A stretch of 39,070 bases of DNA. Origin: Promethearchaeota archaeon (lineage in GTDB: Archaea; Asgardarchaeota; Lokiarchaeia; Sigyniarchaeales; SOKP01). Numbering within the stretch: position 1 is the stretch's first letter; every line of letters begins with the position of its first letter. Of the stretch, positions 15,001 through 21,000 are shown piece after piece. Position numbers: made by a program. Where the stretch lies: NCBI GenBank assembly GCA_016930515.1, contig JAFGGO010000189.1, positions 1 through 39,070 of the forward strand. The letters run 5' to 3'.

Positions 15001-18000
15001 TGGATATTAACTTTTCATTCAGTGTTACCAAGCTTATCGTGAATTTCTTCTACATTTATTTTGGTACTTTTAACCAATTCTTAATAATAATAATAGTTTT
15101 ACTTGTCGTAATATCCATAGCCTTTATATTCTACATTTTAGGCAATCAAGAAAAAGAATTCTTGATTTATGGATATATTTTTGGATCATTGGTCATGCTA
15201 TTAGCCTATTTTGACTCGTGGAATCATCATTTATTAGTGTTTACACCATTGTTGATTCTCGCCATGTTTAACTTGCCAAAAGAATCCAAAATAACAAAAA
15301 ATTACATAAAACCCGAGTTTTTTATCTTGAGCTTTCTTGATTTACCTTTTTTGGGTCTTTGGTACCTCACAAAAGATTTCTTCCCCTTCAATTTTGCGTT
15401 TACAATTGTTTTAATTTTAATTTTTTACGGCGTGTGCGTATATTGCTTGAATATCTATAATAATAACACGAAATACAATAGAATGTGAATAGAAAATGGA
15501 AATAGTACCTGCAATTGATATAAGTGATGGTAAATGCGTGCGCTTGTATAAAGGCGTGAAAGGCACGGAAACGACATATTTTGAAGATCCAATCGATGCG
15601 TTGGAGTTTTGGCTTTCTAATGGCGCTAAGCGCTTACATTTCGTGGATCTGGATGGTGCGTGGGGATCCAATAAAAATGTGGAACTACTCAAGAGAATGT
15701 TAAAGATAGCTTCAAATAAAGTAAAAGTACAAATTGGAGGAGGAATTAGAAGCTACGAAACTGCGATTGGGCTCGTTGAACAAGGGGCAGACCGAGTAAT
15801 TCTAGGAACATTCGCCGTAAAAGAACCAAGCGTGATAAAAAAGTTAAAGGAATCAATTGGATCCGAAAGAATAATTGTAGCATTGGACTACAAGCAGGGA
15901 AAGATTGCAACGCATGGTTGGAAAGAACAAACGACCCTTGATCCTTTTATATTTGGGAAAACTATAGAAGATTTGGGCGCGGGATACATCCTTTTTTCTT
16001 CTGTTGAGGCAGACGGGGCTTTCACGGGACCTGACTTGAAAAATATTAAAAAAATGGTGTCTGCAGTAAACATTCCCGTCTATGCCGCTGGCGGGGTTAG
16101 AAACGAGAATGATATTAAAGAGCTCGCAAAAATTGGTATCTATGGTGTAATAGTTGGAAAAGCCTTTTATGAGAAAAAATTACCGATTTCCATAATCAAC
16201 GCTTCCTTCGACTAGTCAATAAAAATAAATAGAAAGAATCAAAATACTAAGTATCAACAATCCATTTTTACATCTTACCATGGACCAATTTCTTTACGAC
16301 TTACTAGTATTCTTTGCACCAGCTTTCTTATTGGGGATCCTTCATACAGCAATTCCCTGCGAAGATAAGGCCATTTTCTTTTTCTGGTCTTTCGGTATTT
16401 CGAAAACGCCGAAAAAAAGCTTATTTATCCTCTCATTTTATGGATTCGGAGTCATGAGTTCTAATATGGCCATAGCCATAATAGGCATTTTAATAACACA
16501 TTCACCGCGCCTACTAGTTCCAGATTTTAGCTTGGATCCCTATCAATTTAGCTTTTTAGGAGGGTTAACATCGTTAATCGCTGCAATAATCCTCTTTTTC
16601 GTTATTAATTATTCGAATTACACGGAAAAAATCCATTCTAGGTTTAAAAATGAGATTTCAAAGCTTCATTGGGATAAAAATAGAACCCCATTTCTCTTTG
16701 GAATGGTCGTGGGTTTCGCGCCATGTATCTTTGAATTCTTTATTTACGCTAATGTCATAACACTTTCATTATCTTACGATATATTCATGGGCATTATCTA
16801 TCTTTTCTACTTTTGGTTGGGTACATTTACGGGATTATTTTTGATCGCACTTGCTAAAATGGGCACTTCACAAATTTTTCATCCTAATATAAAACAGAAA
16901 AAGACGATATTCATAATTATGATCTTCATCATTATCGTTTTTAATATCATCGTTATAATTGCCAGTTTATTTAGGATAAACATTTATCCTTCATTTAATA
17001 GTTGACAATTGAAGACCAAGTATAAAGCAAAAGGGCGAAAATTTCAAATAATTTTCCAAAACTTCATTAATTTTTAAAAGGTTTAAAAATTAATCACATA
17101 AGAATTGTACTACAAAAGTATTATAATTTGAATTTATATTATACATATTAACAGAAGTAAAAAAACTAAATCGGGTTTGTGAGAACGAATACAATGAAAT
17201 GTTTATTTTGTGAATCGGAAAAAATCGATTTCACGTGCGAAAGATGTAAATCCAGTTTCTGTATTAATCACATTGCAACTACCGAGCAGTGGGAATGCAA
17301 GAAACACGAAATTACCATGAGTAAGGCGAAAGCTGTAGAACAAGCATACAAATGCACGGTAGTTGAAAATAGTGTTTGTCCTGAATGTAAAGGCTTATTA
17401 AAACTTGAACGATTATCCTCGGGGCAGTATTATTTTGAATGCACGGATCCAAAATGTGCTTGGAACTCGTACTTGAAAACACCCGGATTATTCTTCCCAA
17501 CGAAGGAAAAACTTGTAAGAGAAGGTCAAAGGTATCAACTCCTCAAAGGATTTAAAATGTGCGGCAGGCGATTAAAAGAAAACGAGGGAAAAGATGTCTG
17601 CCCCAAATGTTTTTTAGACTTGTTAAAAAGAAGTCCAGTAACGAATTTTGACACGATTAAAAGTTCGTTTAATATTCCCGCTCAAGATTTCACGAAACTC
17701 ATAGAGGAATACCTCGAAGAAGAGCGAATTTATGGAATAATCGATCAAGTTCACCAGATTTTTTATTACATTTCGGATGAGGTGCGCGAAAAGATATTAT
17801 CGAAATTTCACGACGAAGGCTTGATTAAAGTTAAAGACCTTGGGACCATGCTAGATATGAGCACGCAAATCACGCTTAAAATCATCTACAAACTCATCCG
17901 AAAGTACCAGATCAAAGGTTCTTTTTCCCAAGACAAGGAAATATATTATACTCAGAAATATATCACTTCGACTTTTATAAAAAAAATCAACGAAAAAGGA

Positions 18001-21000
18001 AGGATAAGGCTTGATTTTCTTGCTCGCGAGTTTAACATCCCAGAAGCCCAAGTAAAGTCTTTTTGCGTGAACTTGATGAGGACTAACGAAATTAACGCGT
18101 TTTTTGCTGATAAAGGAAACGAAATAATTACGGCAAGTACAATCTCAAACGAAATTAAAGCCTACGCAAAGGATAGTGGCGTATTTGAGCTTTCTAAACT
18201 CGCACAGAAGTTAAAAATAGCCGTTGAGTTGGCGAGAAAAAGCCTCCATAACCTTATCAAAAAAGGTTCAATCAAGGGAATTTTTACCCAAAGACGAGAA
18301 TTTGCAACGGAAAAATACCTTCAAGAAAAGATCAAGGAGCTTGCAAAAGCGTACCGTACTATGCCATTAAAGGAGCTTTCTAACCGATTGGGCGTTACTG
18401 AAACAAGTATCGAAGAGCTGTTAGCTAAACTTATTGGTAAGGGAGAGATCGATGGATATATCGACATGCATAAAAGATTATTCGTTGCCTATTCCGTTTC
18501 GGCATATCGACAAGAAGACCTTCAAAATCTCCCAAAACAAGCAGAACCCATAGTAAAGAAAGATGATGTAGAAGTCGTGAGAGAATACGATTTTATTGGA
18601 GGTCAATTGCATTTCAAGGTCGTTGTAAGAAATAACGGTAACATGGCAATTCATAGTGTAAAAGTTATTCTCGATGTTCCTACGAGTTATAAGCTTAAAG
18701 AACCTCTCATCAACATACCTGTTATCGAACCAGCAAACTCCCGAGGGGTTGATTTCTATTTAGAACCTCACGAATGTGGTATATCATCCATTGGTGGGAC
18801 CGTGATTTACAAGACTGCAAGGGGAGACTCTCGAACAATTCATGTTCAGAAAAAGGAAGTCCAGATCAAGTGTCCTCTTGTTTGTACTTCCTTATCAACC
18901 ATAGAAGATTGCCAACTTTCGATTCAGACACTACCTAATGACGCTCGTGCATTTTTGATTGCAGACCTGGATCCTCGTCTTGCATTCAGAGCAGCAATCA
19001 GATCCCTTAAAAATTTCGAAACATCCATGGTAACGAGCCATGAAACTGGCGAGGTATCGAAATCTTACGAGGGTGAAGCGTGGTTCTGTTCAGAAGCGAA
19101 GGTTACTGGTGGAAGGATAATAACGAGAGCTTATGTTTCGGAAGCAAACCAATCTCTCGAAGTTAGAGTATGGTGCGCAAATCCTGGCCAACTTACAGGG
19201 TTTTTAGCGAAAGTAATAGAACTTTTATTCGAACAAATCAATATCATCCGAAAAATTCGTTCCGATGAGAGAGAAAAAACAATAGATGTCATGGCCATCA
19301 CGCAAAATTTAGCTGAGGTTAGCGATTATTGCATGCTCAGGTGGAAGGCTCAAAACATTAGAAATAAATTACACGACACCTTCGTACGCTTAAGAAAAAT
19401 GATAGGGGATAACGAACCCGTCCTATCACGAATGGAGTATTGGCTTTCATCGCTCAACAAATACGAGAAAGACGAAAATATCTCCGAAGAGGAAGCAGAC
19501 AAGCTCGTTAACGATGTAGAACAATTTAAAAATGTTCTAGCCCGTTCGCTTAAAATATAATATCCTTTTTTTAATTGTACTTTCAATCATTTTTATATTT
19601 ATTAAACACATATAGTGATATATATACGAAAAATATGAGAAATGGATCATGCCAGTTATCAGCATATCAATAAACGAGAGCCTAAAAAAATTCATTAACA
19701 AGCTTGTTACCAAAAACAAGTACGAAAACAAGTCAAAATTGATTCGGGACGCCCTATTGCGATTAATGTCAACGATGGACGCTTCTAATCCCTTGTCGGA
19801 TTCTTCGGTGATTTCTTACGACATAGATCACAAAATATTAGGAAATTCTATTGTTGTAATTCCGAACGAGCCTCAGATTAAAAAAAAGCTAAATAAAATC
19901 GAAATGGATTACAACGAGCAGATAATAAGCAAGAATCAGCATTTTTACAAGGACGGTCAGGTCATCTTCTACTTCTTTGAAGGCACTATCCAAGAATTCC
20001 AAAAGATGGTAGTGGAGATTAACTCAATTAAAGAGGTAAAGAATTTCAGATATCTCATTATTAATTAAGAACATTCTAAAATATCTTGTGTTGCTCTGGT
20101 TATCAAAGATTACATTTAAATTAGGGATTTATTGAGTTAGAAGTAAAGTTTATTATAGGATCATTCAATTTATAATCCAACAAATTATTCCTAAAGCGAA
20201 TAAGGATGGCAAAACAAAAGTATGGAAAAGGTGCTCAATCAAGCAATAAAGGTGGTTCGGTAACTTCAAAATCAGCTGGTGCTCCAATTAAAGGAGGGAA
20301 GATAAAAGCCAGCCATATATTAGTAAATACGCTCAGTAAGGCACAAGAGATTTACGAAGACATTCAAGCAGGAGAAAATTTCCAAGAACTTGCGAAAAAA
20401 TTCTCCGAATGTTCTAGCAAGAACAAGGGAGGGAACCTTGGTGAATTTCCAAAAGGAAAGATGGTGGCTGAATTTTGGAACGCTTGTACCAAGCTACAGA
20501 TAGGAGAGATATCTAAACCGCTAAAAACCCAGTTTGGTTATCACATCATAAAACGCACAGGATAAATTGAATAAATTAATACAAAAAAGTTTGCATAAAA
20601 TATAAATTAAAAAAATCTCTCTAAGGTTCTACCAGTAAATCTCTTTTAGTTTTGAGTGATATTCGTCAAGAGATTTTACGATTAATTTTTTCTTTCTGAT
20701 TTTTTCAATAGCATCTACAATCGTCTGGGCCAATTCTAAATTTATTATTACTGGAATGTTGTAATCAACTGCCATTCGCCTGATTTTATATTCATCTTCT
20801 ATCATTTGTTGAAATTTACCCTCGGCTGTGGTGGGAAGTGGAATGTTAATAACCATGTCAATGCGCCCATCTTGTAAGCAATTCATTATATTTGGTTCCA
20901 TTCCATATTCGTGTACTTTATAAAGTCTGATTGCGTCAATCTTTCTTTTTTTTAACGCAAGTGCAGTATCTTCAGTTGCAAAAATCGTAAAACCAAGATC

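Follow-up and report, generated by a model that had tools for sequence, protein, structure and literature searches.

A Lokiarchaeal protein joining a UFL1/DDRGK1-related winged-helix array to a predicted adaptin-type appendage and a predicted Vps28-like tail

Introduction

The UFM1 ligase platform formed by UFL1 and DDRGK1 (PDB 8b9x, 8qfc, 8ohd, 8c0d) is a tandem array of winged-helix (WH) domains, seven in the human complex, contributed by two chains. The DDRGK1 and UFL1 subunits do not fold alone, and one of the domains is a composite (pWH-pWH′), built in trans by a C-terminal half-WH of DDRGK1 and an N-terminal half-WH of UFL1. The entry 8b9x is the crystal structure of an engineered human DDRGK1-UFL1 chimera with four WH domains. 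The UFL1 α1 helix (residues 1-26) is essential to UFC1 binding and to activity, Arg265 in the DDRGK loop touches UFC1, a UFM1-interacting motif (UFIM) precedes WH1′ in DDRGK1, and every WH domain of UFL1/UFBP1 bar WH1′ contacts the 60S subunit (PMC10702826, PMC10937380). Here we analyse a gene of an Asgard archaeon, Promethearchaeota archaeon (assembly GCA_016930515.1, contig JAFGGO010000189.1, positions 1 to 39,070; this whole stretch of 39,070 nucleotides is called the window), whose product carries a related WH array within a single chain.

Proteins of this kind have been described before. According to the text of Liu et al. (bioRxiv 10.1101/2020.10.19.343400; Nature 2021), many Asgard proteins fuse Vps28 or Vps23, the C-terminal domains of adaptins or COPI, and E3 UFM1-protein ligase 1. 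The text of Makarova et al. 2024 (bioRxiv 10.1101/2024.02.06.579148) presents Vps28-C proteins that also carry adaptin appendages and HTH/PCI domains as candidate analogues of ESCRT-0, and proposes an ESCRT-adaptor role for the Vps28-C/appendage class, which could reach ESCRT-II without ESCRT-I. Going by these texts, this domain architecture has been published before (Liu et al. 2020/2021; Makarova et al. 2024; Picchianti et al. 2023). The window protein is a member of the fusion class of Liu et al., since PF09743 and PF03997 score above their cut-offs, the appendage reaches Z 12.8-13.7 and the host is an Asgard archaeon; its match to one of their drawn examples is taken from the wording of the text. 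The same three hallmark domains are present in one chain, in Lokiarchaeia, with no essential difference from the fusions described by Liu and Makarova. A first-pass annotation of the window, made from the sequence alone, had put the protein forward as a potential eukaryotic signature protein; as a novelty, this was anticipated by the preprint of Liu et al.

What we add is an exact domain map with conserved metal ligands, an element-by-element account of the missing ligase parts, collinearity with DDRGK1 then UFL1 (with the caveats given below), a near-universal distribution restricted to one order, the absence of any conserved neighbour beyond the taxonomic family, non-co-occurrence with UFC1-like E2s, and a link to Sel_Asgard. 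The text portions of Liu and Makarova do not treat DDRGK1 collinearity, the ligands of the Zn module or distribution at the level of orders. Nor do those of Liu, Makarova and Picchianti present a single Asgard chain spanning DDRGK1 and UFL1 with an intact junction WH; we claim no priority on this point.

Results

Gene start and domain map

The first-pass annotation had placed at 17179-19560 a feature made of Zn clusters, about five repeats, a sandwich, a platform and a helical tail. All the motifs that it quoted are present in place. The open reading frame (ORF) at 17179-19560, on the forward strand, has 793 open codons when counted from the GTG at 17179, an alternative in-frame start without ortholog support. 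All orthologs, as well as the database entry of the window's own protein, start at the ATG at 17194 (MKCLFC), giving a product of 788 aa, and residues are numbered from this ATG throughout.

A full-length AlphaFold2 (AF2) model was built with a 40-sequence alignment and had a mean predicted local distance difference test score (pLDDT) of 85.5. The C-terminal half, modelled separately with 72 diverse homologs, reached a pLDDT of 94.2. The full-length model consists of Zn hairpins, rich in β-hairpins (residues 1-136), exactly five tandem WH domains (137-194, 195-253, 254-313, 314-372 and 373-433), a linker (434-456), a β-sandwich (459-565), an α/β domain (570-661) and a helical bundle (664-786). 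The protein is thus soluble, multidomain, devoid of a catalytic domain and assembled from interaction modules. The linker has a pLDDT below 50. Identity among family orthologs is 63-79% in the folded domains versus 21% in the linker, and the protein is under strong purifying selection.

The winged-helix array is related to UFL1 and DDRGK1

The WH array is related to UFL1 and DDRGK1 by sequence and by fold, as the first-pass annotation had proposed. Pfam matches above the cut-offs were obtained with E3_UFM1_ligase (PF09743; 9e-17, 62 bits versus a cut-off of 23.2), with DDRGK (PF09756; 2e-13, 51 bits versus 27.8) and with PCI (2e-28 in five stretches, above the curated cut-off; the best stretch is 378-437 in the numbering from the GTG start). 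When the full model was submitted to Foldseek, 8b9x was the top match (E 8e-12, TM score 0.69-0.71 normalised to target), and a comparison by VIA-align gave a Z of 15.8, with a root mean square deviation (rmsd) of 4.1 Å, over 243/255 residues. The likeness to the UFL1-DDRGK1 platform therefore extends to the geometry between the repeats of the tandem WH array, and to an order that is DDRGK-like, then UFL1-like, each above its Pfam cut-off.

The two human proteins are matched one after the other. A profile of the family aligned to 8b9x with an E of 1.9e-18 and ran collinearly straight through the engineered junction. Against the native proteins, residues 206-297 of DDRGK1 aligned to profile positions 124-217 and residues 26-254 of UFL1 to positions 219-438. 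In this whole-array register, WH1 corresponds to DDRGK1 WH1′, WH2 to the composite WH that the two half-WH build in trans, and WH3-5 to UFL1 WH1-3. An alignment shifted by two repeats scores 11.5 bits versus 66.5 bits. The structural match to 8b9x stops at model residue 374, at the end of WH4, so that the structural alignment picks the same register as the profile alignment.

The window protein, with five WH domains versus seven in human UFL1-DDRGK1, is one chain in which WH2 is intact, whereas the human platform has two chains and a composite pWH-pWH′ at this place. WH2 is uninterrupted and 59 aa long in 24/24 orthologs. Eukaryotic DDRGK1 and UFL1 probably go back to a one-chain array of this type that was split within one WH domain. 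Collinearity with an intact WH at the eukaryotic composite site offers a simple, testable origin for the two-protein complex.

Several observations weigh against a strict reading of this register. The repeats were examined one by one, with five sub-alignments of 24 orthologs against the PDB. WH1 alone gave an in-register match to DDRGK1 WH1′ (219-272, E 2e-4). The single-repeat profile of WH2 had no significant PDB match. The best match of WH3 alone was again DDRGK1 WH1′ (28 bits summed), which it matches as well as WH1 does, and that of WH4 alone was eS25. For WH5 alone, the top profile matches were CSN2 and CSN4, and VIA-align superposed it on 9qo5_D with an rmsd of 1.2 Å over 64 residues, so that it is nearest to the winged helices in the PCI domains of CSN subunits; together with the Pfam PCI match, this bears out the earlier view that the array ends in a PCI-like domain. 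One-to-one orthology of the WH repeats is not claimed, as this single-repeat comparison gave no clean diagonal. Moreover, the repeats resemble one another, with hhalign probabilities up to 95%, and more distant relatives have Pfam matches to DDRGK and to UFL1 that overlap or stand in swapped order. Repeat orthology is therefore not independently established. The whole-array alignments hint at an origin of the eukaryotic DDRGK1/UFL1 pair by gene fission, a reasonable inference rather than a result, the register being unconfirmed by single repeats.

Likeness to PCI proteins (proteasome lid, CSN, eIF3) is limited to the WH subdomain. The helical-repeat subdomain that precedes the WH in those proteins is not present, and in the model each WH follows upon another WH. 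WH3 and WH4 are basic in the window protein (isoelectric points 9.4 and 10.2; family median 9.6-9.7), and WH1 and the platform are acidic.

The Zn module

Upstream of the array, and unlike in UFL1-DDRGK1, residues 1-139 contain 16 Cys or His, each of which is kept in 27-28 of the 28 family members, at identities down to 38%. These would be enough for four predicted Zn sites. The first eight ligands are spaced C-x2-C-x8-C-x2-C-x4-C-x2-H-x8-C-x2-H, a cross-brace pattern of the AN1/HIT-like type; C62, C65, C83 and C88 follow as a zinc ribbon, and C54, C123, C136 and C139 are left over for a putative fourth Zn site. The five best PDB matches of a profile of this module had E values of 0.12-1.1. 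Four of them (1x4v, 1wfe, 1wys, 5ij4) are presumably AN1-type fingers. An assignment as AN1 zinc finger was not retained, as these matches are consistent with it but not significant.

A predicted appendage follows the array

Downstream of the array, again unlike in UFL1-DDRGK1, come two further modules. The β-sandwich and α/β domain together form what the model indicates is an appendage of the adaptin/COPI/BBSome type. The platform matched that of the AP-4 beta appendage (2mj7) with a Z of 13.7 and an rmsd of 2.6 Å over 118/141 residues (Z 13.9 when the full model was used). Sandwich and platform together matched the appendages of AP-2 beta2 and alpha and of gamma-COP, as well as BBS9 (3h1z, 1w80, 1r4x and BBS9), with Z 11-13.3 over 195-232 residues (3h1z Z 13.3, 1w80 Z 12.8), and Foldseek E values for appendages were 3e-11 to 1e-7. 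When both subdomains were aligned the rmsd rose to 11-14 Å, so the relative orientation of the subdomains differs.

Resemblance to the known appendages (AP-2 alpha/beta2, AP-4 beta, gamma-COP/beta-COP, and the GAE-platform of BBS9, BBS2 and BBS7) lies in the bipartite sandwich and platform carried on a disordered linker and, for BBS9, also in the helices after the platform. Identity is about 7-15%. The α-solenoid trunk and the heterotetramer context of adaptins have no counterpart; upstream of the appendage stand the Zn module and the WH array, and the model contains no solenoid. The ear named in the first-pass annotation is accordingly present as a sandwich with a platform, rather than as a lone or generic CARDB/Ig domain, just as the WH repeats are present in the AF2 model and in the structure searches; the modelling and Foldseek comparisons that it had suggested went its way.

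Across 72 diverse proteins with the appendage module, N480, P525, C528, C560, P561 and K636 are near-invariant. Within the β-sandwich, C528 (18775-18777, motif EPxxCG) and C560 (18871-18873, motif KCP) are two nearly invariant cysteines, which may serve metal binding, redox chemistry or packing.

The helical tail resembles the C-terminal domain of Vps28

The first-pass annotation had recorded a helical tail, which is indeed there, and had missed its more specific identity. Profile and model comparisons together identify it as a probable homolog of the Vps28 C-terminal domain (CTD). Pfam VPS28 (PF03997) matched with 25.4-28.5 bits, versus a cut-off of 24.5, over model positions 88-187 of 188. 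When the family profile was compared with the whole PDB, the three best matches of the bundle were Vps28 CTDs (E 1.4e-3), and superposition on the Vps28 CTD 2j9u gave Z 13.1, rmsd 2.1 Å over 93/94 residues and 18% identity. Because helical bundles give a high background Z, the assignment rests on sequence and fold together.

The bundle shares its four helices with the CTD of ESCRT-I Vps28 (2j9u, 2g3k, 2j9w) and differs from it in an extra long helix (664-686) that comes before. The N-terminal headpiece (steadiness-box) by which Vps28 joins Vps23 and Vps37 has no counterpart, as the platform domain precedes the bundle; the usual joining of the ESCRT-I core is therefore impossible. The window ORF is the only Vps28-CTD match in the genome at E ≤0.01 (Pfam). 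The genome has an ESCRT locus on another contig (Table 1), whose Vps25-like protein is 314 aa long with a long N-terminal extension, and at which neither Vps28 nor Vps23 was found by Pfam.

A second relative of the C-terminal half came from NCBIfam. The model NF045535, Sel_Asgard, "putative selenocysteine system protein", matches residues 591-782, that is platform plus bundle, with about 50 bits (52 versus a model cut-off of 132), a likeness at profile level only. The proteins of this family are stand-alone and about 195 aa long, whereas the domain of the window protein is embedded in a chain of 788 aa. The true Sel_Asgard gene of the genome scores 225 bits and lies directly downstream of SepSecS. 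In pairwise BLASTP, the similarity between the C-terminal half and this protein was not significant, so that the two are linked via the family profile only, and a single-sequence query found no paralog of the C-terminal half in its own genome.

Ligase-specific parts and UFM1-system genes

The protein lacks all the parts that make UFL1/DDRGK1 a UFM1 ligase. The UFC1-binding α1 helix is absent: the UFL1 alignment begins at UFL1 residue 26, inside WH2, and the constant 59-aa length of WH2 leaves no room for it. The loop that would hold the DDRGK arginine reads IIDQVHQIF in the window protein and IIDQKNQMF in the family consensus, with only the first Asp kept. The long N-terminal helix and UFIM of DDRGK1 are absent as well, residues 1-136 being Zn hairpins in the model and the DDRGK1 match covering only its residues 206-297. 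There is no membrane anchor (highest 19-residue hydropathy 1.36). The C-terminal half of UFL1 (WH4-5, the PTC loop and the C-terminal domain) is missing too, since WH5 is followed by the linker, the appendage and the Vps28-CTD-like bundle. The scaffold of E3-like and coat-adaptor-like modules seen in the first-pass annotation thus stands as to domain types, and "E3-like" does not hold in the functional sense.

UFM1-system genes were then looked for in the genome, which is 94% complete. Pfam Ufm1 (PF03671) gave no credible match over the whole genome (best E 0.56, interrupted by stops), and passed its cut-off in 0/151 genomes of the phylum. Nine Asgard clades nevertheless have reported Ufm1 homologues (Köstlbacher et al. 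2026, PMC12962969). The Pfam model is therefore blind to them, and absence of Ufm1 from this genome is not established. The sole UFC1-like match in the genome is a domain within a TPR fusion protein on another contig (Table 1); when its last 90 residues were used as query, only the protein itself was found in the genome, and no paralog. Distribution is more telling than the Ufm1 search: the window gene is present in 62/68 genomes of one family of its order and in 6/7 of the other, whereas UFC1-like E2s were detected in 8/68 and 0/7. UFC1-like E2s therefore do not co-occur with the window gene.

Distribution and relatives

The source organism is a Loki-type Asgard archaeon, and database homologs carry the names Promethearchaeota or Lokiarchaeota. 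Surveyed among 301 genomes of the phylum, as the first-pass annotation had suggested, the architecture proved near-universal in its own order, and full-length orthologs were confined to it. They share 43-80% identity, have a near-constant length and are mostly present in one copy per genome. Such conservation, together with near-universal presence across one Lokiarchaeal order, implies that the protein does something important. NCBI records name some homologs of 70% identity Thor-, Odin-, Heimdall-, Hod- or Hermodarchaeota. Such names are probably artefacts of binning or labelling, because the GTDB-based genome search puts the full-length family in one order only.

In two sister families of the same class, a protein of 723 aa shares the Zn module and has a longer WH/PCI array, which extends up to the C-terminus; appendage and Vps28-CTD are both lacking. 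The window protein therefore consists of two halves that are separable modules. An exhaustive search of representatives found only three other full-length clusters at 50% identity, and hundreds of proteins in which residues 456-690 (the appendage module) stand behind other N-termini, most commonly HTH/WH, PCI, double zinc ribbons, TPR and TIR. A core made of WH/PCI then appendage, sometimes with the bundle, is thus widespread, and the window family is one well-conserved arrangement of it. This family also gives the strongest matches in the phylum to the eukaryote-built UFL1 model, with 50-72 bits versus 26-35 bits elsewhere.

Discussion

Three modules of eukaryotic type, from different cell systems, are found here in one chain: a UFM1-ligase platform, a vesicle-coat ear and an ESCRT-I tail. 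We rate at a little better than even the chance that the gene product is a modular adaptor, soluble and non-catalytic, possibly feeding ESCRT-II/III, of the Asgard fusion family that combines UFL1-like WH, appendage and Vps28-C. As we picture it, the rigid and partly basic WH array would dock onto a large partner. By analogy with the UFL1/UFBP1-60S contacts, this could be the large ribosomal subunit, or else another nucleoprotein or a PCI-type complex. The flexibly tethered appendage would collect partners bearing short peptide motifs, as adaptin ears do, and the Vps28-CTD-like bundle would link the whole to ESCRT-II/III proteins whose genes lie elsewhere in the genome. Candidate partners for this predicted coupling are possibly the Vps22-like, Vps25-like and Snf7 proteins.

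Against an ESCRT adaptor stand the following points. Sequence support for the Vps28 CTD is modest (22-28 bits), and the background of helical bundles is high, CheA P1 reaching Z 11.9. The gene lies outside the ESCRT locus. The stand-alone platform-plus-bundle relative, Sel_Asgard, adjoins SepSecS and not ESCRT genes. Finally, with housekeeping neighbours and a synteny limited to the taxonomic family, gene context supports neither ESCRT nor the ribosome.

The protein could instead serve translation without ESCRT, its WH array binding the ribosome or RNA and its platform-plus-bundle being a translation-linked module shared with Sel_Asgard. The match of residues 591-782 to the Sel_Asgard model, the position of the true Sel_Asgard gene next to SepSecS, the 60S contacts of UFL1/UFBP1 WH domains (PMC10937380), the resemblance of WH4 to eS25 and the basic character of WH3 and WH4 all go in this direction. 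Foldseek also returned the tandem WH of SelB (1lva) among the fold matches. The tandem WH domains of SelB bind SECIS RNA. However, the eS25 and SelB similarities may reflect just the generic WH fold, the Sel_Asgard match is far below its cut-off and fails in pairwise comparison, its role in a selenocysteine system is only putative, and the window gene adjoins no translation gene; we hold this explanation to be unlikely. A DNA-binding regulator or chromatin protein, whose WH/HTH repeats and zinc ribbons would bind DNA, is less likely still, and indeed very improbable. Many weak Pfam matches to HTH families (FeoC, DeoR, MarR, TrmB, Lrp), the annotation of homologs as Lrp, ArsR or DtxR regulators in some sources, and the ribbon-helix-helix gene found just downstream within the taxonomic family would fit it, but the HTH matches are all below their cut-offs, with PCI, UFL1 and DDRGK scoring far higher, WH1 and the platform are acidic, and a five-WH array with appendage and Vps28-CTD is the architecture of a protein scaffold.

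The protein might also work as a genuine E3-type scaffold in an archaeal conjugation system of Ufm1-like or ubiquitin-like type, recruiting its E2 by a surface other than α1 and having a WH-bound substrate modified, for example a ribosomal protein. The family's UFL1-model scores, the strongest in the phylum, speak for this, as do the Ufm1 homologues reported from nine Asgard clades and the existence of a UFC1-like domain in the genome. Yet the α1 helix, the DDRGK arginine and the UFIM are all lacking, and the sole UFC1-like domain of the genome sits within a TPR fusion protein. In a family where 91% of the genomes have the window gene, UFC1-like E2s occur in 12%, and no gene for a ubiquitin-like protein (Ubl), an E1 or an E2 adjoins the window gene in any of the 15 loci examined. 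We therefore find such a ligase scaffold quite improbable. In a bolder form of the adaptor reading, the protein would be a present-day representative of the single-chain form from which the eukaryotic UFL1-DDRGK1 platform arose, already docking on the large ribosomal subunit and handing ribosomes, or ribosome-bound cargo, to ESCRT via its Vps28-like tail. It would then represent a forerunner of ER-ribosome quality control that works independently of a modifier, and eukaryotes would later have divided it between two genes and tied it to UFM1. We give this a slim chance.

At the bench, the protein is a target for asking which role the UFL1/DDRGK1 platform had before there was UFM1 conjugation, and whether adaptors other than ESCRT-I feed Asgard ESCRT.

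Neighbouring genes and other loci

The features of the gene and the other loci mentioned are collected in Table 1. The window gene is surrounded by genes for GT87 glycosyltransferases, a HisA/F protein, a DsbD-like membrane protein, a ribbon-helix-helix (RHH) protein, a PPIase and CarAB. When 15 loci were compared, the order GT87, HisA/F, DsbD-like, window gene, RHH and PPIase was kept within the taxonomic family only. No operon partner was found in these 15 loci, those of the sister family and of the sister class having unrelated metabolic neighbours. Within the taxonomic family the RHH gene adjoins the window gene at 10/10 loci, two of which have it on the opposite strand; more distantly related loci lack it.

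Table 1. Coordinates of the gene, of its predicted domains and of other loci (window positions unless a genome contig or another locus is given; residues counted from the ATG)
Feature	Position	Strand	Basis or remark
Whole gene	17194..19560	+	788 codons + stop; orthologs align from residue 1-2 of ATG-started protein
Zn module, residues 1-136	17194..17601	+	conserved Cys/His, β-hairpin-rich model
WH1, residues 137-194, counterpart of DDRGK1 WH1′	17602..17775	+	single-repeat profile, whole-array alignment, model
WH2, residues 195-253, uninterrupted WH	17776..17952	+	whole-array alignments
WH3 + WH4, residues 254-372, basic	17953..18309	+	array alignments: correspond to UFL1 WH1 and WH2
WH5, residues 373-433, most PCI-like winged helix	18310..18492	+	Pfam, profile matches, VIA-align
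Linker, residues 434-457, disordered, poorly conserved	18493..18564	+	pLDDT, ortholog identity
β-sandwich, residues 458-566, predicted appendage "sandwich" subdomain	18565..18891	+	model, structure comparison
Predicted α/β platform subdomain, residues 567-662	18892..19179	+	structure comparison with 2mj7
Helical bundle, residues 663-788; last four helices (~694-786) probable Vps28 C-terminal-domain homolog	19180..19557	+	
139-aa protein, N-terminal ribbon-helix-helix motif	19649-20068	+	just downstream of window gene
TPR-repeat ORF with borderline UFC1-like domain (21-26 bits)	genome contig C100, L002:1171-3420	-	749 aa from first start in locus; 897-aa open frame
ESCRT locus: Vps22-like (EAP30), flavodoxin-like, Vps25-like, Vps4, Snf7	genome contig C85, L074:8422-12839		Pfam
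True Sel_Asgard gene	genome contig C134, L048:6458-7141	-	SepSecS at L048:7271-8644
723-aa sister-class variants	L061:7122-9293 and L062:7119-9290	-	Zn module + WH/PCI array

Elsewhere in the window, a gene at 7990-9114 on the reverse strand encodes a GTPase of the Ras/Rab family whose C-terminus is extended by about 200 residues matching nothing in Pfam; its presence supports an Asgard origin for the contig.

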